From Bdellovibrionota bacterium (GTDB taxonomy: Bacteria; Bdellovibrionota; Bdellovibrionia; Bdellovibrionales; JAEYZS01): DNA of 58,636 bases. Positions 6,980-54,179 of the stretch are shown piece after piece. Location of the stretch: positions 1 through 58,636 of the forward strand of contig CAUJDY010000019.1 in the NCBI GenBank assembly GCA_963169805.1, in the 5' to 3' direction. How positions within the stretch are numbered: the first letter of the stretch is position 1; every line of letters starts with the position of its first letter. The notes beneath the pieces were generated by a model. It did no database searches. It saw only the letters and a list, made by a program, of their open reading frames with translations, and had not been told where the DNA came from. A program made the position numbers and the translations under genes.

Positions 6980-8908
6980 CTATTTCTTTTTCTTGAATAG
7001 CATACCAACAACATCTTTTAAATCTGCATTCATGATGTCTACAGGTTTTGAAGATTTCTTTTGGAGCGAGATAATATTCAATTCTCTTTTTGCTTCTACG
7101 TTATTTGATTGCATTGAGAGAGCTTGTTTCATATTTTTTTCTGCCTGTTCAAGATCTCCAATTTGCTTCAAATATAGACCTTTAACAAAATAATAGGTCG
7201 TATTATGCCTATCCTCAGGCGGTATTCTATTTAAATCTGATTCAATATCCTTTAGATAGGATTCTACGTTTTGTGCTTGTGGGATTAGGATTTTGCCCCA
7301 AAGATAGTGTAAGCGAATTTCTGCAGTTGGGGGGCGAAGAGACATTGCTTTTTCTAAAAGAGGAATAGCTTTCTGAGGTTGGTTTGATTTTAGAAAGGAT
7401 TTTCCTTCTTCGAATAAAGATTCTGACTCAAGAATTTTTTCAGCAAACCCCTTTTCAAGTTCTTTAAGATATTTAAGTCTTGATTCATCTTCACCAAGCA
7501 TTTCATAGGCTTTAGAGATCTTTGCAAAAATATTATTTGTTAACTCTAAAACTTCTTTTGGAGCTTGTGGAGAGACTTTGTCTGGGTGAAAAAGCTTTGA
7601 AAGCTCATAGTAAGATTTTTTGATCTCTTTTGATTTTGCTTTATCGCTAAGACCTAAAACTTCAAAGTGATTTTGCAGATCCATGTCTGCCTTAATTTTA
7701 GAAAGTCTTTCTATAAGCGCCTTATTGTCGACAGGCTTTACCTGCTTATCGAAGCAAATAAATTCGTTAACAATTAGCATGTGAACACCTATCAGGACAT
7801 CTTCTTCTTTGAATGTCTTTTGGTCTAAAATTTCTGTTAAATTGGCGCCTTGTGTGAGAATTTGTGCAAACTTAGGCATTCTATTAAGCGGAGCTAAATT
7901 ATGAATAGGTGATATGTCAGCAAAGAATTTTGTTTTGGATATTTTATTTTCCATCCAAGGCATGTAGAAAGTTTTAAGCCATGTCAGGGTGAATTTTGAG
8001 TGCAGCCAATCGCTGAGAAACCTTTGGTAATCCTGTGATTCTAGATGAACGGCATCCTCTGTTATATTTTGTTCTGATATTTCTAATTCATATGAAGTGT
8101 TTTTAATTAAATATCCCACTCGTATGCCAAGCTGTTCAGCGTTGATAATATCAATAACATGTGGACTTACAAGATTTGCGTCTACAAGTCTCTCTCCAAT
8201 TCTTTTGGATGATTTTTGTTGGAGAGTTGTTTCAAGCATTTCTACAGAAATAAAGTTTTTATCAACGAGGAGTGCTCCAAAGAATGACTTTGGATCATCT
8301 ACAACTGCCTTTACAATCGCTCCTGATTTAAGATGTATTTCTATTGGCTTCACTTGAGAAGATTTAAATTTTAGTATTCCAGAGAATTGAGCCTTCATTA
8401 GGTATGCAAGTGCACGAGGAACATCAAATCCATGGATTTCTGTCATAGAGCGTACGGCTTCAAGTCTTTCTGAATGTGTTGCTTGATCTTTTGTTAGGAT
8501 ATCAGACGTAGGGGCTAACTCTTCAGTTACAAGATCTGCAAATTCGTTTGATAGAAGTTCTACTACGACTTTTGTATCTATAGGTTTTTTAAAAAAGTGC
8601 TGTGACTTAGTTTTAATCATAGCATCTTTAGCAGAGCTTTTATCTAAAACAAAACTCATAAAAATAAATTTAGGTGTAGATGTTGCTTCTTTTTGGATTA
8701 TGCCAACAATATTATCGAGAGAGGCTTTTTGAGTGAGGCATTCAATAAAAATTAAATCAAATTTTCTAAGCTTAACGGTTCCAATGAGTTGATCATGGTC
8801 AGAGAAGCAAAAAACAGAATAACCCGCCTTCTCAATTTCAGCCTTCATTTTTTGGGCAGATGCGGAGTCAATATCTAGAATGGCAATAGAAATATCTTTT
8901 TTATTCAT
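6980..8908 (-). CDS. Multidomain J-protein: REC-like (Glu at acceptor position), DUF4388-like region, DnaJ J-domain and TPR repeats
   Basis: N-terminus ILDIDS...FDLIFIE...FKKPID. The central segment FSGILKFKS..IEIHLKSGAIVKAV is DUF4388-like. J-domain NHFEVLGLSDKAKSKEIKKSYYELSKLFHPDKV carries the HPD motif. The C-terminus has TPR-like repeats. Confidence 0.7.
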   Translation of the reverse strand: MNKKDISIAILDIDSASAQKMKAEIEKAGYSVFCFSDHDQLIGTVKLRKFDLIFIECLTQKASLDNIVGIIQKEATSTPKFIFMSFVLDKSSAKDAMIKTKSQHFFKKPIDTKVVVELLSNEFADLVTEELAPTSDILTKDQATHSERLEAVRSMTEIHGFDVPRALAYLMKAQFSGILKFKSSQVKPIEIHLKSGAIVKAVVDDPKSFFGALLVDKNFISVEMLETTLQQKSSKRIGERLVDANLVSPHVIDIINAEQLGIRVGYLIKNTSYELEISEQNITEDAVHLESQDYQRFLSDWLHSKFTLTWLKTFYMPWMENKISKTKFFADISPIHNLAPLNRMPKFAQILTQGANLTEILDQKTFKEEDVLIGVHMLIVNEFICFDKQVKPVDNKALIERLSKIKADMDLQNHFEVLGLSDKAKSKEIKKSYYELSKLFHPDKVSPQAPKEVLELTNNIFAKISKAYEMLGEDESRLKYLKELEKGFAEKILESESLFEEGKSFLKSNQPQKAIPLLEKAMSLRPPTAEIRLHYLWGKILIPQAQNVESYLKDIESDLNRIPPEDRHNTTYYFVKGLYLKQIGDLEQAEKNMKQALSMQSNNVEAKRELNIISLQKKSSKPVDIMNADLKDVVGMLFKKKK

Positions 8909-15336: not shown

Positions 15337-17274
15337 TTAAGAAGCTTTTTTAAGTTTTTGAGTCCATTGATTAATTTTGATCAATGATTGTTCGTCTGTA
15401 TCCGTAAACTTCACGCCGTAATTTTGGGTATTTGACATCCAAACAACTTGTCCTGAAACACGAATGCTGTCGCTACCATTTGGACCGGCGACTTTCATTT
15501 GGACTGGCAGACCAAGTTTGAGTACGGCACTTGTATTCAGGCTGAGACCACCCAGAGAGATTGTTCCAACTTGTCCTAGATATTCAGACTGACCAAGCAA
15601 AATCTGTACTTGTGATGGCATATGGAAACGTTCAAATCGTCTCTGATTTTTTGGGTTTTGGCTTAGTAGTATTGCAATCACAAGTGGGAAAGCAAGAATA
15701 GCCAGAACAACTAATATTGAAAGTGGGTGAGTAGGAGGAGGATTATTTTGATTGTTTTCGTAGTCTGTATAAACTTTTTGAACTAAGCCACATCCCGCTG
15801 CAGCGGCACCGGCTGGTGATCTTAATAAATGTGCTGAAACATCGTAGTCAGGAGAAGAGGCATCAACAGAGGCAGAGTTTGCATCAGCAACAGCTGTGCT
15901 CGCATTTACACGACCACTATTCTTCACTTTTCCTTGAAGTTTTGGTGTAGCGCCAGACAATGGAACATCAATTGATCCCATGAGTAAGTTTTTTGTTTGG
16001 TAACCAATCATTGTAGGCTGTTGATACATCATCATAGCTGCAATACCGGCTACAAATGGAGCGGCCATACTGGTTCCAGTCATGGAGGCTGTATAGTTAC
16101 AAGTGGCATCGCCCGTATTGCAGGCAACTGTACTTAAGACTCCAACGCCAGGTGAGCCAATGTGAACATTATTGACTCCATAGTTTGAGAAGCTTGCGCT
16201 GTAGTCGAACGAATTTGAAGCTCCAACAGAAAGAACATTAGGAACATTATAAGACGCAGGATAAGTTGGACTTGCATCAATGTTTAACCCAGAGTTACCT
16301 GCTGCAGCGACAAACAGAGTGTTACGATCATAAGTGTAGGCAATAGCTTCATGTAGTGCAGTGGAGTAAGAACCACCTCCCCAAGAATTATTCAAGATTT
16401 TTGCACCTTTGCTAGCGGCATAATAAATGGCTTGAATAGCATCAGAGGTTGTTCCAATCCCATCACAATCTAAAAACTTAAGAGCCATGAGTTTAATTCG
16501 AGTGCTTGCTAATGCTCCAGCCCCAACCCCAATAATATCCTGAGTGGCTCCGCGAATAATTCCGGCTACATGTGTTCCGTGATCGTTACAGTCATTAGGA
16601 GTGTTGTCGTTTGAAACAAAATCCCAGCCGGCAATGTCATCAACATAGCCGTTGCCATCATTATCAACACCGTCGACCACTTCTCCAGAGTTGGTCCATT
16701 TAGCATCAGCAAGAAGAGTATTTCTGAAATCGATGCCAGTGTCTATCACTGCAACTACAATTTCTGGATTTCCTGTGCTTAGCTGAGCCCAAGCTTCAGG
16801 AACTGATATCGGTGCTCCTGTTTGATCGTAAGGAAGACCTGTTGCACCTTCGTGATAGTTTTGAGCTGCATATTCCTCAGCTTCTTCAACAGACATTGTT
16901 TGGGACTCGCGTACGGCGCGTGTGACGGACACGTAGTAGTTTGGCTCTGCGTACTCAATATCTGGATCGTTTCGAAGTTCGTTGACCATTTGGGAAACAG
17001 TTTTATTAGATTCGATTTTATAACTAAAAGTGCCTTGATCGACCCACGCACGCTTTGCTTTGAGTCCTTTTTTGGATGCAATTTTTTGATGAATTGAAAG
17101 AGTCTTTGATTTTGTGTTGGCAGCTGAAAGGCTATTTGTGGGATCTTGATTTTTGTATTTAACAATAACTTCTCCGGGAACATAACTGTTTGTTATGCTC
17201 TGAGCTGCAGAGAATGATCCTACAAAAAGAAAACAAAAAGATAAAAGTACACTAAACGTTCTATTCACGCACAA
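15337..17274 (-). CDS. Secreted subtilisin-like (S8) serine protease with a C-terminal TM helix and cytoplasmic PilZ-like domain
   Basis: Signal peptide MCVNRTFSVLLSFCFLFVGSFSAAQS. Triad motifs VAVIDTGID, HGTHVAG and GTSMAAPFVAG. TM helix LSILVVLAILAFPLVIAILL. The C-terminal 102 aa contain RRFER (RxxxR) and TISLGGLSL (xSxxG). Confidence 0.85.
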   Translation of the reverse strand: MCVNRTFSVLLSFCFLFVGSFSAAQSITNSYVPGEVIVKYKNQDPTNSLSAANTKSKTLSIHQKIASKKGLKAKRAWVDQGTFSYKIESNKTVSQMVNELRNDPDIEYAEPNYYVSVTRAVRESQTMSVEEAEEYAAQNYHEGATGLPYDQTGAPISVPEAWAQLSTGNPEIVVAVIDTGIDFRNTLLADAKWTNSGEVVDGVDNDGNGYVDDIAGWDFVSNDNTPNDCNDHGTHVAGIIRGATQDIIGVGAGALASTRIKLMALKFLDCDGIGTTSDAIQAIYYAASKGAKILNNSWGGGSYSTALHEAIAYTYDRNTLFVAAAGNSGLNIDASPTYPASYNVPNVLSVGASNSFDYSASFSNYGVNNVHIGSPGVGVLSTVACNTGDATCNYTASMTGTSMAAPFVAGIAAMMMYQQPTMIGYQTKNLLMGSIDVPLSGATPKLQGKVKNSGRVNASTAVADANSASVDASSPDYDVSAHLLRSPAGAAAAGCGLVQKVYTDYENNQNNPPPTHPLSILVVLAILAFPLVIAILLSQNPKNQRRFERFHMPSQVQILLGQSEYLGQVGTISLGGLSLNTSAVLKLGLPVQMKVAGPNGSDSIRVSGQVVWMSNTQNYGVKFTDTDEQSLIKINQWTQKLKKAS

Positions 17275-24498: not shown

Positions 24499-25428
24499 AT
24501 GTCAGAAATACTGAAATGTGAAATGATTCATCCACAGATGTCTGGTTATAAGTGGAAGCTCAGTCTTAAAACAGAAAATGCCTTTTTAAATATCTCTGTT
24601 GCCACACTTTTTTTTTCCTTCATGCAAGTTATTGTCAAATACCTCAAGGACCTGCCATTTTTTGAGCTGGTGTTTTTTAGAGCTGGTATCTCACTTATTT
24701 TTGCTTTTGGAGCCCTTAAGGTTGCGGGTATTTCTCCACGTCCATCTAATATTAAATGGGTTGTGATTCGTGGTTTAGCAGGGACTCTGTCTCTGATGGC
24801 TTACTTTTACAGCCTTCAAACTCTGCCTCTCACAACAGCTGTGACGCTTCAATATTTATCTCCTATTTTTAGTGTTTTGTGGGCCTCAATGTTTTTTCGA
24901 GAACCGTCAACTGTCATACAATGGTTTTTTCTATTAACAGCTTTTTTGGGAGTTTATGTAGCAAAGGGAATTGAAGGCACTATTCCGCTTGTTGATGTAG
25001 GAGTTGGAATTGCGGGAGCAATGCTATCTGGAATGTCTTATAATGCCATTCGACAACTTAAAGAGAGTGATCCGCCACTTCGAGTTGTTTTTTATTTTCC
25101 TTTAATAACAGTATTTATTGCAGCTCCATTTGCTTTTTCGAATTGGGTTTGGCCCACATTTGATCAGTGGCTACTCATTTTAGCATTAGGCATGGTTACA
25201 TGGGTGGCTCAGATATTTATGACGAAAGCATATCAGCAAGGCGCCCCTGGCGTTGTGAATATTGTGGGTTATACTGGAATTTTCTATGCGGCGTTTTTTG
25301 GGTATGTCTTTTTTGAGGAAAAATTGACTCTGCTTCATACCTTTGGAATTCTGATCATGCTAGTGAGTGTTGTGACGAGTACTTTGATTTCACAATCAAA
25401 AAAACACAAAGGGGCTGGGACTGCATGA
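24499..25428 (+). CDS. EamA/DMT-family transporter
   Basis: About 10 TM segments in two similar halves, which is the typical EamA repeat organisation. The true start may be an internal Met. Confidence 0.7.
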   Translation: MSEILKCEMIHPQMSGYKWKLSLKTENAFLNISVATLFFSFMQVIVKYLKDLPFFELVFFRAGISLIFAFGALKVAGISPRPSNIKWVVIRGLAGTLSLMAYFYSLQTLPLTTAVTLQYLSPIFSVLWASMFFREPSTVIQWFFLLTAFLGVYVAKGIEGTIPLVDVGVGIAGAMLSGMSYNAIRQLKESDPPLRVVFYFPLITVFIAAPFAFSNWVWPTFDQWLLILALGMVTWVAQIFMTKAYQQGAPGVVNIVGYTGIFYAAFFGYVFFEEKLTLLHTFGILIMLVSVVTSTLISQSKKHKGAGTA

Positions 25429-26318
25429 GCGATAAACATCATCACGATCATAGGCATAGCCATCACCACCACCACAGTCATTTTAGTTCTGACAAGAAAC
25501 TGTTGATTGTGTTTCTCTTAAATCTCTTTATGTCGATTATTGAGTTTATTGGAGGTCTTTATACAAACTCAACGGCTATTCTTGCGGATGCTCTACATGA
25601 TTTTGGTGATGCGATTGCTCTTGGTAGTAGCTGGATTTTAGAAAAAGTATCTAAAAAAACAGGAGATCAGCATTTTTCATTTGGGTACAAAAGGTTTTCG
25701 CTTTTAGCAGCGCTCATAAATTCACTTATACTTCTAGTGGGTTCATTTTTAATCCTTAAAGAAGTTTTTCCTCGGATTCTGTCTCCAGAGGAAGTTAACA
25801 CTTCCGCTATGATTGGCTTTGCACTATTTGGACTCCTCGTAAACGGGGGCTCGGTTTTGCTATTGAAGGGCGGGAGTTCTTATAATGAGCGTGTCGTAAC
25901 ACTTCATCTTTTAGAGGATGTACTTGGTTGGGTTGCTGTTCTTATTGGAGCAATTGTTATGAATTACTATCCACTCCCAATTCTAGACCCTATTCTTTCT
26001 TTATTGATAGCTTTATTCATCCTGAAGAATGTCTATGTAAATTTAAAGGATGTTCTCTTCATTTTTCTACAAGGAACACCTCAAAATATTGATTTAAAAG
26101 TGCTCCAAGAAAAACTTTTGAATCATGAGTTCATTCAAAAAATCTACCACATTCACGTTTGGTCACTGGATGGTGAAAAACATGTTCTGACAGCTCATGT
26201 TGTTCTCAAAAAATCAGTCCAACTATCTGATATTCCGCAGATTCAAAAATGGGTTCAAGAAAAGACTCAAGCCGCTGGATTATGGCATTCTACAATTCAG
26301 TACGAAATTTCAGTTTGA
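25425..26318 (+). CDS. Cation diffusion facilitator (CzcD/ZitB-like Zn/Co/Cd efflux) with a His-rich N-terminus
   Basis: HHHDHRHSHHHHHSH tail. TM2 ILADALHDFGDAI and TM5 LHLLEDVLGW are CDF metal-site motifs. Its start overlaps the EamA gene stop by 4 nt. Confidence 0.85.
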   Translation: MSDKHHHDHRHSHHHHHSHFSSDKKLLIVFLLNLFMSIIEFIGGLYTNSTAILADALHDFGDAIALGSSWILEKVSKKTGDQHFSFGYKRFSLLAALINSLILLVGSFLILKEVFPRILSPEEVNTSAMIGFALFGLLVNGGSVLLLKGGSSYNERVVTLHLLEDVLGWVAVLIGAIVMNYYPLPILDPILSLLIALFILKNVYVNLKDVLFIFLQGTPQNIDLKVLQEKLLNHEFIQKIYHIHVWSLDGEKHVLTAHVVLKKSVQLSDIPQIQKWVQEKTQAAGLWHSTIQYEISV

Positions 26319-26858: not shown

Positions 26859-27001
26859 AAGAACCTCATGGTTAGAGCAACTAGATATGTCTAGAATTGG
26901 AACATTTATCAAATAAAAAGAGTTTGTCGCAAAGCGATACACCCTTTGTTCCATCTGTAGAAAAGTTTAACAATTTCCATAAAATTCCGAAAAGTCTAGA
27001 T

Positions 27002-27643
27002 ATGGCAAAAAATAACGCGATCAAAAATAGCGGCATCCACAAGGCTACTAATAGGCGAGTTGATGCTCGGATAGACGTCAGTGCACTCCAGTACAAAGTG
27101 GCCTTTGTAAATCCGCAGGATGTGGAGTCTGATGTGCTCTTGCACAATATTAGTCTTGGGGGAATAGGTATTGTGTCTCAAGATGAGATGCAAATTTCTG
27201 ATCGTGTTCATTTTTGTTTTGATCGATATACCAATCATTATTTTTCGGGAACAATCAAATGGGTGGAAAGGCTTCGAGACGCTAAGACATTTAAATATGG
27301 AATTCAGTTTGATATTGGCAGTGAAAAAGATCTTGAAGTTGTAAATGCCTTTGTTACTCAAATATTTATTCAGATGCCAAAGGAATTTATTATTATTAAA
27401 GCCATCGAGTTGTTTACTTCTGGGCAAATGCTTCAAAATCAACTGAAACTTAAAGAAGTAGAGCAGATGATCATCAAAGATGATATTAAATCATTCGTTA
27501 AAAATATGAGTGGAAAAATAGAAAGTTCAATTAAAGACATTCCTAATTCTAAGGATCTTATTCTGAACTTTCTATATCAGATGTATATGTTGAAGGCCGA
27601 TGTCGATCAGTTTCAAGCTGATGTGGATACAAAGTATCACTAA
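27002..27643 (+). CDS. Stand-alone PilZ-domain protein with a C-terminal helical extension (start trimmed to MAKNNAIK)
   Basis: Canonical c-di-GMP-binding motifs RRVDAR (RxxxR) and NISLGGIGI ([D/N]xSxxG) in the correct spacing. Confidence 0.75.
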   Translation: MAKNNAIKNSGIHKATNRRVDARIDVSALQYKVAFVNPQDVESDVLLHNISLGGIGIVSQDEMQISDRVHFCFDRYTNHYFSGTIKWVERLRDAKTFKYGIQFDIGSEKDLEVVNAFVTQIFIQMPKEFIIIKAIELFTSGQMLQNQLKLKEVEQMIIKDDIKSFVKNMSGKIESSIKDIPNSKDLILNFLYQMYMLKADVDQFQADVDTKYH

Positions 27644-40636: not shown

Positions 40637-41278
40637 GTGGGGGGATCTGTGGGGATAATTCACAAAATAATTGGGATATTGTTTTTATTTGCAACAACTA
40701 CTGTTTTAGCACTACCTGCGATTTCAGATTCAGTAGCAAGAGACTATGAGAATACAAAACAGGTACTTCGTAGTCAGGGGTATATTGATACTCAGCTTGA
40801 AGCAGATCTTCAGTATCTTAAACAAATAAAATATTCAGTCCCTCGTGAGATGACAGAAATGGAAGTTTACTTAACTCATCCTGGATCTGGATACGGATTT
40901 AGCCGTGCAGAAGATTCAGAAAAAGAATTAATACGTATTATTGAAGAAACTCAAAAGAGACCTCACTCCTCGGAAAAGGAACTTATAATTGGAGATGCCT
41001 ACCATTGGCTTGGGCACTTGTACCAAGAGAGATTTGATTTACTTAAAGCTTTTGAGAGCTTTGTGAGATCTTTTTTTCACTACAGATTGACGTCTCTCAG
41101 TCGTTCTCCTCGAATAAATTCACGTGTTGAGGTCCACGAACATAGTATTTTCCATTTAAGCGATATTAGTAAATATATTCGACGTTCGGTGTCTGGGATC
41201 CAGTACTATGAAAACGTCATTTTACCGAGACAGGCCATACAGAGTTGTAAGGAATTTTTTAGAGCTTCAGGATTCTAG
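40637..41278 (+). CDS. Hypothetical secreted/membrane-anchored protein
   Basis: 213-aa ORF with a GTG start and hydrophobic N-terminus IIGILFLFATTTVLALPA. No family recognised. Confidence 0.45.
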   Translation: MGGSVGIIHKIIGILFLFATTTVLALPAISDSVARDYENTKQVLRSQGYIDTQLEADLQYLKQIKYSVPREMTEMEVYLTHPGSGYGFSRAEDSEKELIRIIEETQKRPHSSEKELIIGDAYHWLGHLYQERFDLLKAFESFVRSFFHYRLTSLSRSPRINSRVEVHEHSIFHLSDISKYIRRSVSGIQYYENVILPRQAIQSCKEFFRASGF

Positions 41279-41956
41279 AACAATAAAATGATCTTTGAGT
41301 TGCTTAAGTGAAACAATCCACTCTCTTTGAGCGATATCTGGAAACTTTTCTTGGAGATGAGTCACTAAGTCTTTTGTGATCATAGAGCCTTCGCTTAATT
41401 CATCTAGAATAGCGGCATGATAGAGAGTTCCGGCTAGATAGGTGATTTCTTTTGTCTCAGAGTTCTTTGAAATGAGCAGCAAATTTTGTTTTTCTAATGG
41501 CTGACCTTGCGGTTTTTGTACATAGCCAAAAATATCAAATTTTAATCGAAGTGCCTGAGCAATTGGGTTTGAGTAGACGATAGTCGAAAGGCTACTATAC
41601 AGACCTTTTATGCGATTTGGAGTCGGGTCATTTTGAATTTGAAATATCGTGATTTCGTAATCAAGTAGTTCTAAAAAATAATCTTCTACACAGTACTTTT
41701 CTTGATATTTTTTGAAAAATAAAGGGAGATAAAAAATATTCTCGGAGAGATCTTGTGTATTGATTTGAATCTCTGATAGGTAATGAGGAAGAGAGTCTTT
41801 AAAAAAACTCTCTCCTTTTAATGTTAAACTAAGAGGAGCAATTTTTTTAATTTTATAAATATAAAATGCAAAATCCCGAGTGTTTAACGTGGGGTTAATA
41901 TAGCTTTTTATTTTATGTACAAAATCACTCTTTTTAAAGTTTAACAAAAAATCCAT
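41267..41956 (-). CDS. Hypothetical protein, possibly DUF2063/HvfC(BufC)-like, translationally coupled to the upstream Cys-rich peptide gene
   Basis: Its ATG overlaps the TAA of the upstream gene (TAATG). Segments FLELLDYEITIFQIQ and LYHAAILDELSEGSMITKDL loosely resemble DUF2063 patterns. By eye only. Confidence 0.35.
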   Translation of the reverse strand: MDFLLNFKKSDFVHKIKSYINPTLNTRDFAFYIYKIKKIAPLSLTLKGESFFKDSLPHYLSEIQINTQDLSENIFYLPLFFKKYQEKYCVEDYFLELLDYEITIFQIQNDPTPNRIKGLYSSLSTIVYSNPIAQALRLKFDIFGYVQKPQGQPLEKQNLLLISKNSETKEITYLAGTLYHAAILDELSEGSMITKDLVTHLQEKFPDIAQREWIVSLKQLKDHFIVLES

Positions 41957-42246
41957 TAAGTTTTAACTTTCTTGTCTTTTCCGCAACCACAAGACTTTCC
42001 ATCACCTTTGCAAGACTTACTATCACAAGATTTGCCATCTTTATGGCCTCCGCATTTACAACCTTTTTCACAGGTACAGCTTTCTCCACCACAGGATTCG
42101 CAGGATTTAGTATCTTTTGCGTCAGCTACTGTTTGACTTGCTGTTGTTCTGTCTTTTTTTGCGGCCTTATCGCAGTCGCAAGCCATAGCTTTTTGTGTTA
42201 TCGAAAAAACAAATAAAAGACCCAATAAGAATGTAAGTAGCTTCAT
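41956..42246 (-). CDS. Exported Cys/Lys/Gly/Asp-rich mini-protein (metallothionein-like or RiPP-precursor-like)
   Basis: Signal peptide MKLLTFLLGLLFVFSITQKAMA. The mature part of about 74 aa has 12 Cys in CxC/CxxC/CGCG arrangements (CDCD, CESCGGESCTCEKGCKCGG, GKSCDSKSCKGDGKSCGCGKD) and no aromatic residues. Confidence 0.65.
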   Translation of the reverse strand: MKLLTFLLGLLFVFSITQKAMACDCDKAAKKDRTTASQTVADAKDTKSCESCGGESCTCEKGCKCGGHKDGKSCDSKSCKGDGKSCGCGKDKKVKT

Positions 42247-42284
42247 GTAGACTCCTTTTTTTTTAGTTATCCATCAATTATCCT

Positions 42285-42383
42285 ACACCAAAAGGTACGG
42301 CGCCACTGATGGTTTAGCTTAGCGTCATTTAATACAAAAATGACGCTAAGCTAAACCATCAGTGGCGCCGTACCTTTTGGTGT
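42285..42383. repeat. 99-bp perfect palindrome (46-bp arms, 7-nt centre) in a divergent promoter region
   Basis: ACACCAAAAGGTACGGCGCCACTGATGGTTTAGCTTAGCGTCATTT (42285..42330) is the exact reverse complement of 42338..42383. The loop is AATACAA. Confidence 0.9.
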
Positions 42384-42486
42384 CTAAAGTTTGGAAAGAG
42401 ATGAATAGATTACATGCAACCCCTTGTTTTGCTGGAGTTTTTTGGTTATGGACGCTACCTTATGTGCGCCACGTTAAAGGTAATGG

Positions 42487-42837
42487 ATGAAGTCTATGAT
42501 CATGGTACTAAGTTTAATTTTAGCTGTTCTTGTAAACCTGGGTGCGTTTGCGTCGGATACTGCATTTCAGGATTGTATTCGTAAGCACAATTCAACCTTT
42601 CAGATGATGGTTCAGCGCCATGAAACAGAATCGGATGACCTCTTTCAGGGGGCACTCCTAAACCTCTCACAAGATTTAGAATCTTCTGGATTTAAAATTC
42701 ATTACATTAATTTAAAAACAGGAACTTTTTTACTTCAGACTCTAGATCCAGTTTTAGCAGAAAAGTATGCCACTCAACAAATTGCGAATGGATCTCTCAT
42801 TTTTCAAGGATGCCAAGTAGAGGGAGTTTTGCAGTGA
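42487..42837 (+). CDS. Small secreted hypothetical protein
   Basis: Signal peptide MKSMIMVLSLILAVLVNLGAFA. 116 aa. No family recognised. Confidence 0.5.
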   Translation: MKSMIMVLSLILAVLVNLGAFASDTAFQDCIRKHNSTFQMMVQRHETESDDLFQGALLNLSQDLESSGFKIHYINLKTGTFLLQTLDPVLAEKYATQQIANGSLIFQGCQVEGVLQ

Positions 42838-43370
42838 AACTCATCTTTACATTAAATCTTGTGGTAGGCCTCATTTTTACAGGTCAGTGTTCTTGGGCAA
42901 ATATTAGTCCAGATTCTATAAATAGTATTCGTCATAAGCTAGACGGCGTTTCTCTGTTGTATAGTGAAGACACCTCCATTTTAATGCAACAGTCGACTTG
43001 TGTTGTTGAAGTGAACTTAGGATTTGATAATCAAATACAATCTTTCCGCTATCAAGGTAGAGCTCGAATGCTGAGATATGAATTAGGGGCGGGGGCGGTA
43101 AAATCAGCTATTTCATTTCCAGAAACTGAATTGGCTCTTAGTAATAGAATGAGCGGCCTTCGTGTTGAGAGTACTTACGCCAATAACACTTCAACATTAA
43201 GAGTCTTTAGTGGAAAAGATGTTTTATACCTTGTAACGATTGCTTTTGATTTTCAGAAAAAACCCATATCCACTTACATTCAATACAACAAGCCGATATT
43301 TGGTTCAAAAGTTGTTGAGTATTATGAGGCTTATTGTGGGCTTCGTATTAGTGAGCTAGGTTCGTTGTAA
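42834..43370 (+). CDS. Secreted hypothetical protein (start set to the GTG overlapping the upstream TGA)
   Basis: GTGA start/stop overlap with the preceding ORF. N-terminus [22 protein letters not shown] is signal-like. No family recognised. Confidence 0.5.
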
Positions 43371-52166: not shown

Positions 52167-54179
52167 GTGGATATTCTTCATGTTATGAATAGGTTAGCTC
52201 AAGAAAAAAGTCCGTATTTGCAACAACACAAAAATAATCCGGTAGATTGGTATCCATGGGGATCTGAAGCTTTTGAAAAAGCAAAAAAAGAAAATAAACC
52301 AATCTTTTTGTCTATCGGCTATTCTTCCTGCCACTGGTGTCATGTAATGGAGCATGAATCCTTTGAAGACCAGCAGATCGCGGACTATCTCAATCAAAAT
52401 TTTATTTCAATTAAAGTAGACAGGGAAGAGCGCCCAGATGTAGATAGTCTTTATATGCTTGTTTGTCAGATGATGACGGGTCAGGGAGGATGGCCTCTCT
52501 CTATTTTTATGACATCAAGCCAGCAACCTTTTTTTGCTGGAACCTATTTTCCTAAAATAACAATGAATGGACGGCTTGGATTTATTGATGTTTTAAAGCG
52601 TATTCAGTATATCTGGTTACAGCAGAAAAAAGACCTTCACAATACAATTCAAAATATTGATGTTGCACTAAGAGAATCACAAAAGAATCTATCTGAACAT
52701 ATTCAAATAGAAGCTCTGATTGAACAAGCAACTCAAGATTTAAAAACACAATTTGACCCCCACAGAGGTGGTTTTGGCGTAAAGCCTAAATTTCCGTCAC
52801 CCCATAAAATTTTATTTTTAATTGAGCAGTATCGTTGGACAAAAGATCCTGAGATACTTTCGATTGTTGATAAAACTCTCAGAGAAATGCATCGTGGGGG
52901 AGTTTTTGACCATATTCGAGGGGGATTTCATCGTTATTCTACAGATGAAAATTGGGAGTTACCTCATTTTGAAAAAATGCTCTATGATCAAGCTTTATGT
53001 GCCCGAATGTATTTGGAAGCTTATCAACTAACAAAAGTTGAACTTTATAGAACAGTAGCTGAAAAGATCATTCACTTTGTACAAATGTCTATGTCGGACG
53101 GTGGTGGGTTCTTTTCTTCTTTTGATGCGGATAGTGACGGAGAAGAAGGGGCGTTTTATACATGGTCTTACCAGGAATTGGAGAGTATTTTGTCCTCCCA
53201 GGAATTGTATCGACTGGAGCAGATGTTTGATATTCGGAAAGACGGAAATTTTTTGGATGAGGCGACCCATGAGCCTGTTAATAAAAATATTCTATTTTTG
53301 AAGAATTCAATTATAGGCAGCTCTAAGGATTATACTTCATTATCTGGTATTTTTGAGAAATTAAAGAGCATGGCTCAAAATAGAGTCCAACCTATGAGAG
53401 ATGAAAAAATATTAGCAGATTGGAATGCTCTATTTATTCAAACTCTTCTAAAAGCCTATGATATTTTAGGAGAAGAAAAATATCTAAACTTGGCTGAACA
53501 ATCTTTAGATTTTTATGAAAAGAATCTGATTAAAGAGGGTAGAATATTTCATAGAGTGTGCGATGGAGATATTCTAGAAAAGTCGTTTTTGGATGATTAT
53601 GCTTTAGCAATTGGAATGTATCTTCAGCATTTTCTTGTGACATACAATGTAGATTCCTTAGAGAAAGCAGTTGATTTTACAGATCGAGTTATCAATGAGT
53701 ATCTGGACAAAGAAGGCTCTGGTTTTTATTTAAGTTCAGAGTTCGATCAAGATGTTTTTATGCGTACGAAGGATTTTTATGACGGCGCATACCCTTCTGG
53801 GAATTCTTTTATGTATGAGAATCTTGTTATTCTTTGGAATATAACTGGTCAGTCTAAATATAAAAGCCAATTAGAGATTTTGCAGAAAAATCATGGGGCA
53901 CATTTGTCTGCTTCGCCCACTGGGTTTGTCTATTTACTTCGGGCTTTATCTCTTTGGCATCGTGGAAGTTTAGAAATTCAAATTCAAGGTGAGTGGGATA
54001 AAAAATCAAGGGCAGAAATCGAGTCTATTGTAAGAGATTATTATTTGCCAGAGAAAATTATAAAAATAACCGATAGCGATAAGCCACAAATTCAAATTTG
54101 TCGTGGAATGTCGTGTGGTTTGCCTGTTTTGACTATTTTAGACTTTAAAAATGAATTAAGGAAGTTGTACTCCTCCTAG
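52167..54179 (+). CDS. Thioredoxin-domain protein of the YyaL/DUF255 family (thioredoxin-like N-terminus plus (alpha/alpha)6 barrel)
   Basis: [61 protein letters not shown] is the hallmark DUF255 N-terminus. 670 aa. Confidence 0.85.

Follow-up and report, generated by a model that had tools for sequence, protein, structure and literature searches.

A two-gene operon in uncultured Bdellovibrionales-like bacteria pairs an exported Cys-rich mini-protein with a DUF2063- and RRE-type partner, with no MNIO gene nearby

Proteins that combine a DUF2063 domain with an RRE-type domain are defined in surveys as partners of MNIO enzymes, and they are nearly always encoded beside an MNIO (PMC13097082, PMC12452194). 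What could such a protein do where no enzyme is encoded in its surroundings? The question is raised by a stretch of 58,636 nucleotides (nt) from a Bdellovibrionota bacterium (assembly GCA_963169805.1, contig CAUJDY010000019.1), hereafter referred to as the window, which is the entire contig of this genome. The minus strand carries a gene for an exported Cys-rich mini-protein of 96 amino acids (aa), directly followed by the gene of a 229-aa partner protein of the DUF2063 and RRE type. A precursor and partner operon that occurs throughout a lineage, is kept by selection and lacks the enzyme raises the question of the partner's function on its own. We tentatively interpret the operon, with a confidence just short of even, as an MNIO-less derivative of the captophorin (bufferin/oxazolin) periplasmic metallophore systems. 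The new element is a captophorin/bufferin-like module without its catalytic enzyme and with a new precursor family.

The peptide gene (positions 41956–42246, minus strand) starts with ATG. A strong Shine-Dalgarno sequence, AGGAG, is located 5 nt before the start codon (42252–42256, minus strand) and is kept in relatives, as seen in the alignment of upstream regions. At the TAATG junction (41954–41958, minus strand), the stop codon of the peptide gene overlaps the start codon of the partner gene by 1 nt, which suggests translational coupling. The same overlap was found in the related loci L012 and L014, and the gap in other lineages is 0 to 21 nt. Scans for sigma-70 promoters and terminators near the operon gave matches no commoner than in shuffled sequence. 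In the whole window, the peptide is the sole open reading frame (ORF) of at most 160 aa in which a hydrophobic N-terminus goes together with 6 or more Cys and a Cys share of 8% or more. Homologues of the peptide were present in 18 protein clusters. Comparison with the closest relative gave nonsynonymous and synonymous differences (pN and pS) of 0.12 and 0.62, and dN/dS was about 0.1–0.2 in the remaining compared pairs for both the peptide and the partner genes. These ratios indicate that both genes are under purifying selection. One 251-nt contig from a biofilm metatranscriptome was 100% identical to positions 41876–42126 and spanned the junction of the two genes. As a single contig of low depth, it is direct but weak evidence of a bicistronic RNA.

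The precursor begins with a Sec-type signal peptide (residues 1–22, MKLLTFLLGLLFVFSITQKAMA; 42181–42246, minus strand) that ends in an A-x-A cleavage site. The n, h and c regions and the A-x-A site, read from the sequence rather than by a dedicated predictor, are kept in every member of the family. The 74-aa mature part contains 12 Cys, 16 Lys, 10 Gly, 9 Asp, 8 Ser and 1 His, with no Phe, Trp or Tyr; its Cys residues are clustered as CDC, CESC, CTC, CKC and CGC, and the net charge is positive (17 Lys and Arg versus 12 Asp and Glu). Thus, the first observations of the sequence-only reading, a 96-aa ORF with a Sec-type signal and a mature part of about 74 aa that has 12 Cys and lacks aromatic residues, overlapping the 229-aa ORF by TAATG, were reproduced. 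The A-x-A-C site could also be taken for that of a lipoprotein. This possibility was rejected: Lys at position −4 violates the lipobox in most members, and since several members (L004, L005 and P0074) lack Cys at position +1, cleavage by signal peptidase I is favoured.

The motif TVADAKD (residues 39–45; 42112–42132, minus strand) lies after the signal peptide and before the Cys-rich core. Its residues V40, A41, D42, A43 and K44 are invariant or nearly so in the 18 otherwise fast-evolving peptides. Because it is a short invariant non-Cys motif at the expected position in a fast-evolving peptide, we propose it as a putative recognition sequence for the RRE-like domain of the partner. The core (residues 49–88; 41983–42102, minus strand) consists of K-x-C and C-x-C units (TKSCESC, SCTCEKGCKC, DGKSCD, SKSCKG and DGKSCGC). 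The layout of the whole family is similar: the signal peptide ends in QKAxA, C[DP]C usually stands at the mature N-terminus, and the near-invariant TVADAKD is followed by a variable linker, a G-K-x-C-x-C core and a C-terminal GK[DS]CGC. Family cores contain 35 G-K-x-C-x-C units, and Lys occupies position −2 for 73 of the 184 core Cys. Members have between 6 and 12 Cys, odd counts included, and no aromatic residues; HKHKK-like His stretches occur in most of them. AlphaFold2 (AF2) predicted a helix for the signal peptide only, the mature part being disordered with a predicted local distance difference test score (pLDDT) below 50.

None of the known precursor families accommodates this peptide. 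The window peptide had no Pfam match at E ≤ 10, and seven family members had none at E ≤ 1; neither it nor these seven matched DUF2282 (PF10048), which has four conserved Cys. No NCBIfam model matched the family members examined. The EGKCG motif was not found in any of 23 family peptides. Compared by description with the Buf_6/12Cys class of bufferin 2 precursors, a Cys-Lys group with 6 or 12 conserved Cys in a small folded domain, the window peptide has 12 Cys and the family 6–12, with no fold predicted by AF2. None of the metallothionein families passed, the best being the plant PEC metallothionein with an E-value of 0.65 for one member, and the family profile matched no metallothionein in PDB. 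The only PDB sequence matches of this profile were antigen-binding fragment (Fab) chains, limited to the N-terminal ~40 residues, presumably the bacterial secretion leaders of expression constructs. The comparison with HvfA/BufA precursor classes that the sequence-only reading had called for therefore yielded no DUF2282 match, no EGKCG repeats and no known precursor family, and by sequence the peptide is a new precursor family. Its G-K-x-C-x-C units resemble the EGKCG of oxazolins and fontiphorins with an extra residue separating Lys from Cys, although this is a resemblance only.

The partner gene (41267–41956, minus strand) encodes a divergent two-domain DUF2063 and RRE protein, PME-like and of the HvfC/BufC/TglI type. 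Its profile matches by sequence alone are faint. The 229-aa protein had no match to PF09836 (DUF2063) even at E ≤ 10, and no NCBIfam family, including the HvfC/BufC models, matched it at E ≤ 10. PF22106 (NGO1945_C, now HvfC_C) matched residues 130–223 with an E-value of 0.0024 and 18.7 bits, below the gathering score of 27, the match spanning profile positions 1–91 of 93. Precomputed PF22106 matches were available for three members of the partner family, and a faint match was seen at one locus.

The fold is more informative. The AF2 model of the partner has a mean pLDDT of 67, with 70–90 in the domain cores. The N-terminal domain (residues ~26–109; 41630–41881, minus strand), which carries the ELLDYE motif, is helical (residues 26–109, pLDDT 80–90) and homologous to the C-terminal part of DUF2063. 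The C-terminal domain (residues 130–223; 41288–41569, minus strand) is an RRE-type winged helix of the NGO1945_C/HvfC_C kind, modelled at residues 134–223 as three strands and three helices. The top Foldseek match was NGO1945 (3DEE), with an E-value of 4.6e-4, probability 1.00 and template modelling (TM) scores of 0.52/0.58 over 220 columns. It was followed by chain A of the TglHI complex (8HCI; TM 0.59), which was taken as TglI because the DUF692 enzyme is chain D, and then by the RRE domains of TbiB1 and by MbnC.

Profile searches placed the partner in the same superfamily. An exhaustive search with 24 family members as the query retrieved 43 representatives at E ≤ 1e-3; among the 37 remote ones, 17 carry PF09836 and eight PF22106, and one (P0057) is an MNIO-DUF2063 fusion. 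When the family was aligned by hhalign with 15 remote proteins, 13 of which contain PF09836, the probability was 99.7% and the E-value 5.2e-27 over 202 columns, and the profile of these 15 proteins matched 3DEE_A by sequence with an E-value of 9.4e-9. Partner residues 31–228 pair with residues 45–253 of the DUF2063-bearing P0038. The homology therefore begins at residue 31, in the C-terminal half of the Pfam DUF2063 domain, and the N-terminal signature segment is undetectable. The conserved motifs of the partner are ELLDYE and KIAPLS; the acidic ELxDYE motif is common to the partner and MNIO-linked DUF2063 proteins. Since neither a signal peptide nor a hydrophobic segment was found, the partner should be cytoplasmic. 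The loose resemblance to DUF2063 noticed by eye in the sequence-only reading is thus substantiated by fold and by profile-profile comparison, although it falls below the PF09836 and NCBIfam HvfC thresholds. Fold, profile search and profile-profile comparison settle the identity: the partner is a divergent member of the DUF2063 and RRE superfamily. Its characterised relatives BufC, HvfC, FonC and TglI present precursors to MNIO enzymes (PMC11626156, PMC12452194, PMC13097082).

The partner family comprises about 24 clusters with 40–53% identity. Three species-representative genomes contain it, all of them metagenome-assembled genomes (MAGs), two labelled as Bdellovibrionales bacterium and one as Proteobacteria bacterium, and the pair is confined to a narrow lineage of uncultured Bdellovibrionales-like bacteria. 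The window organism itself was found in biofilm, activated-sludge and wastewater metagenomes; the biofilm and activated-sludge runs X1–X8 contained 51–97% of the words of the window. The window represents an ordinary chromosomal region, with mreC, the PBP2 gene, rodA, lptF/G, clpB, lysA, the aspartokinase gene, dapD, hflX, the malic enzyme gene and fadAB, and the pair is always located between hflX and lysA. The peptide gene stands directly 5' of the partner gene in the window and in L001–L006, L008, L009, L011–L014, L017 and L018, and in eight measured pairs the two genes were separated by −1 to 21 nt. The association extends to distant relatives. At L017, the partner (P0029) matches the family profile with an E-value of 3e-19, the synteny is the same, and the preceding gene encodes a 91-aa exported CxC peptide with TVASAKA that the hidden Markov model of the peptide family recognises at an E-value of 4e-8. 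At L018, where the partner (P0030) matches the family profile at about 1e-19, the preceding gene encodes a 67-aa exported peptide with CDCDKKDG and GKECGCDKKDGKSC.

Conservation of the pair as neighbours, on which the significance of the operon had been made to depend, stood in most relatives, the deep L017 and L018 included, and failed at three loci. At L007 and L010, which belong to one lineage, and in the P0018 contig, the partner gene is intact and in its hflX...lysA position with no adjacent peptide gene; it is preceded there by 140–200 nt of non-coding DNA (L007, 2904–3080; L010, 9800–9977; P0018 contig). No Cys-rich peptide was found elsewhere in L007 and L010, including the full 20.7 kb of L010, and no second copy of the peptide was found. 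Since three loci from two lineages retain the partner alone, the coupling is strong, although not universal.

Genes for MNIO enzymes were sought in the entire window and in 4–20 kb of DNA per relative. Pfam scans for PF05114 of 35 window ORFs, including all those of at least 200 aa not already identified through Pfam-labelled orthologues, gave no match. When the MNIO domain of the fusion protein P0057 was used as a phmmer --max query on every ORF of at least 80 aa from the window and 14 related loci, the best E-value was 0.085. The same query retrieved TglH (5e-20) and MbnB (2e-3) from PDB, which makes the negative result meaningful. In the related contigs, the 8–10 kb around the partner gene carried no PF05114 label; these flanks cover at least 11 lineages, the deep L017 and L018 among them. 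The absence of a DUF692/MNIO gene near the pair, proposed from the sequence of the window, thus holds for the whole 58.6 kb and for the flanks of related loci.

A parallel case was found in a sister branch represented by P0031 and P0032. The loci of these two proteins are syntenic with each other (arginase, M42 peptidase ... queG, polyA polymerase, resB, ccsA, cytochrome c7). In the P0032 contig, the genes for a 159-aa protein, a 228-aa PF05114 protein and P0032 (241 aa) follow one another, and the P0031 locus (L015, 7545–8594 / L016) contains only the genes for a 150-aa protein and P0031 (197 aa). P0032 is about 45 residues longer at the N-terminus. This looks like a natural case of loss or gain of an MNIO with the partner retained. 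As in the window operon, a DUF2063-like partner is kept at the P0031 locus with an upstream gene and no MNIO. The synteny is different, and the 150-aa upstream product lacks a signal peptide and is not rich in Cys. By analogy, the parallel supports an MNIO-independent life for such partners.

How could an operon of this kind work? If the MNIO-less interpretation is correct, the RRE-like domain of the co-translated partner would bind the nascent precursor in the cytoplasm, most likely at TVADAKD. Bufferins can be modified without their signal peptide, the region that follows it being involved in recognition (PMC11626156); PME1 partners bind Sec-signal precursors and were speculated to mask the signal peptide as long as modification is unfinished (PMC12452194). 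The partner would keep the Cys-rich chain unfolded, reduced, metal-free and export-competent, and would hand it over to Sec, timing the export. After cleavage of the signal peptide, the mini-protein could bind the soft metals Cu(I), Zn and Cd in the periplasm through its Cys residues, joined by His ligands in most relatives. It would then act as a metallothionein-like buffer in which plain thiolates do the job of the thiooxazoles of bufferins, which chelate copper in the periplasm (PMC11626156). The narrower proposal that the DUF2063 and RRE partner has an MNIO-free role, as the dedicated cytoplasmic escort of an unmodified, Sec-exported, intrinsically disordered metallothionein, is possible if doubtful. 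The balance tilts somewhat towards no MNIO acting on the peptide.

Several points weigh against this interpretation. Since the three loci mentioned above keep the partner alone, the partner may have a different client or a different role. Support for expression comes from a single low-depth metatranscriptome contig, and we infer the metal binding, the binding of the peptide by the partner and the role of TVADAKD. The periplasm is oxidising and free CxC thiols are prone to form disulfides, so that an unmodified thiolate buffer would be chemically awkward; this risk is plausibly the reason why bufferins turn Cys into thiooxazoles. In addition, the DUF2063-like domain, thought to dock the MNIO in known systems, is well conserved, and the model gives it no specific job. 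Recruitment of a different, non-MNIO enzyme by this domain is a possibility. Finally, an unlinked MNIO may be encoded elsewhere in the genome, beyond the DNA inspected.

This last point leads to an alternative in which the enzyme acts at a distance. The pair would be the substrate and the adaptor of a split captophorin/bufferin pathway, and an MNIO encoded elsewhere would convert Cys to 5-thiooxazoles before Sec export. Such a product would avoid oxidation of thiols in the periplasm (PMC11626156), and the partner retains both domains and the acidic motif of MNIO-linked DUF2063 proteins. Bdellovibrio bacteriovorus (GCF_000196175.1) has an MNIO and a DUF2063 gene, according to our interpretation of the column order in Table S4 of PMC12452194, which also discusses genomes where several precursors may be served by a single MNIO-PME pair. 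However, PME1 genes are reported to be almost universally adjacent to MNIO genes (PMC13097082), and here the searches detected none in the window and none in the flanks from at least 11 independent lineages. The partner also lacks a detectable N-terminal segment of the DUF2063 signature, and the K-x-C-x-C units are unlike the K-C (EGKCG) and C-K motifs of characterised enzymes (PMC13097082). On these grounds a split pathway, although the strongest of the alternatives, appears unlikely.

The loci with the partner alone could also mean that the two genes are functionally unrelated, the partner having its own role, for example in regulation or DNA binding, and the peptide gene being merely inserted upstream. 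Transcriptional regulation was indeed proposed in the structural paper on NGO1945 (PMC2954202), but the proposal of DNA binding by DUF2063 proteins has been superseded by the role of MNIO partner (PMC12452194, PMC11626156). A chance neighbourhood is improbable given that the codons of the two genes overlap or are at most 21 nt apart in the eight measured pairs, that an RNA contig crosses the junction, and that the pair persists in L017 and L018 despite partners that match the family profile only at E-values of about 1e-19. Another alternative stems from the host: the named genomes with the family are only MAGs labelled Bdellovibrionales, and the mature peptide is net cationic and predicted to be secreted. 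It might therefore be a disulfide-rich effector of a predator, antimicrobial or prey-directed, with the partner as immunity protein or export chaperone. The composition of the peptide makes this highly improbable, since it has no aromatic and hardly any hydrophobic residues and lacks the amphipathicity typical of membrane-active peptides. Cys counts of 6 to 12, odd ones included, are at odds with a fixed framework of disulfides, His-rich HKHKK stretches occur in most members, and AF2 finds no fold. Furthermore, CxC pairs, as generally known from metallothioneins, are typical of metal-thiolate clusters and are poor disulfide partners.

If the MNIO-less interpretation is true, the peptides would be the first described class of bacterial periplasmic metallothioneins, and the pair would be a natural "enzyme-less" operon resembling those of peptides that are ribosomally synthesized and modified post-translationally (RiPPs). 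A peptide working unmodified would mean that thiooxazole chemistry is not obligatory for such a periplasmic metal buffer; if an unlinked MNIO exists, K-x-C-x-C would represent a new substrate motif for captophorin enzymes. The sequence-only reading had kept two options, a periplasmic metallothionein with a dedicated partner and a reduced or divergent RiPP system, and the DNA inspected is compatible with both. The candidate functions of the partner on its own are holding of the precursor, masking of the signal peptide and timing of export, so far only speculated for BufC. The surveys could not find this family, since they were built around MNIOs or the PF09836 signature. In the literature library searched, DUF2063 proteins are either placed in MNIO operons or described in papers predating that assignment, with no precursor and partner operon without the enzyme, and a literature search for exported bacterial metallothioneins gave nothing relevant. 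Metal stress is relevant in the wastewater, activated-sludge and biofilm habitats of these organisms.

The DNA around the operon has features of its own. The intergenic region 5' of the peptide gene holds a perfect inverted repeat of 46 nt (42285–42383), its loop being 7 nt long. It occurs once in the window and is absent from the closest relatives, where part of it corresponds to an alignment gap of about 54 columns. Its depth in the DNA run X1 was about 33 versus about 7 in the flanks, and its loose ends run into different sequences. Because of the raised depth, the divergent ends and the absence in relatives, it looks like an inserted multi-copy palindromic element, similar to repetitive extragenic palindromic (REP) sequences or miniature inverted-repeat transposable elements (MITEs). 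An Rfam search of the upstream region gave only sub-threshold hairpin noise over the 46-nt palindrome. Next to it, a non-coding block of about 95 nt (~42380–42474) lies just 5' of a divergent 116-aa ORF. In the comparison of the window with L012, L014 and L001, its DNA was conserved above the adjacent coding sequence, and its motif TTGCNTGTAATCTNTTCA is restricted to this subclade. The block had no Rfam match, and RNAalifold gave −4 kcal/mol with no covariation. It is possibly a shared promoter or operator of two divergent operons. The divergent genes (42487–42837 and 42810–43370, plus strand) overlap and encode proteins of 116 and 186 aa with signal-like hydrophobic N-termini and no Pfam or NCBIfam match. 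Their counterparts in L001, L012 and L014 have 129/176, 119/177 and 135/156 aa, respectively, and large TSP1/PKD-domain proteins take their place in the other subclade. On the other side of the operon, a 213-aa ORF (40637–41278, plus strand), hydrophobic at its N-terminus and without a family match, is convergent with the partner gene, with a 12-nt overlap of the 3' ends; convergent genes of similar size occupy this position in L001, L012 and L013, and not in L004 and L005.

Just two genes related to metals or thiols were seen in the window, one for a CDF-type cation efflux transporter (25425–26318, plus strand), at about 16 kb from the pair, and one for a DUF255/thioredoxin-domain protein of 670 aa (52167–54179, plus strand), at about 10 kb; neither is operon-linked in relatives. 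Elsewhere, an unusual fusion of 645 aa (15337–17274, minus strand) combines a fervidolysin-like prodomain, a subtilase domain (Peptidase_S8) and a C-terminal PilZ domain, which binds cyclic di-GMP, and a separate 248-aa PilZ protein is encoded at 26897–27643. A 642-aa protein (6980–8908, minus strand) contains response-regulator receiver, DUF4388, DnaJ and TPR domains.

Among known systems, the captophorin/bufferin/oxazolin operons (bufABC(D), hvfABC and fonABC) are the closest to the window pair. Likenesses include a precursor that combines a Sec signal with a core rich in Cys, Lys and Gly, its first place in the gene order with a DUF2063 and RRE-type partner after it, and the likely role in periplasmic binding of soft metals. 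The window pair differs in that no MNIO (PF05114) is encoded between or near its genes, as in the relatives examined, and that no DoxX gene is present; its precursor matches no DUF2282, EGKCG or NCBIfam model, its partner fails the PF09836 and NCBIfam thresholds, and its host is Bdellovibrionales-like rather than a member of Pseudomonadota. The window precursor is predicted to be disordered, whereas folds are predicted for the bufferins BufA1 and BufA2 (PMC11626156). Like the window partner, the DUF2063-like protein of the PME-type 2 systems is overlooked by the Pfam signature (PMC12452194), but these systems were reported with signal-less precursors and always with an MNIO, while the window precursor has a Sec signal and no MNIO. 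NGO1945 (3DEE; PME-type 1, HvfC/BufC) shares with the partner the helical DUF2063 domain and the C-terminal RRE-type winged helix; among structures it gave the best match, and it is linked to the partner by sequence transitively, through the remote DUF2063 set. The identity to it is about 15%, the ~30 N-terminal residues of the DUF2063 signature are unrecognisable in the partner, and no MNIO is found beside the latter. TglI (8HCI/8HI7) is a structural match of similar quality, with a TM score of 0.59. On the side of the peptide, SmtA and other metallothioneins have no sequence or Pfam similarity to it; SmtA and BmtA are cytosolic and have no partner, whereas the window peptide carries an export signal and has one. 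Csp1, in turn, is a Tat-exported, folded four-helix bundle and provides a precedent for Cys-based storage of Cu(I) by an exported protein. With SmtA/BmtA and Csp1, the window peptide has in common a high Cys content, CxC clusters, the absence of aromatic residues and the presence of His, a composition that suggests metal-thiolate binding.

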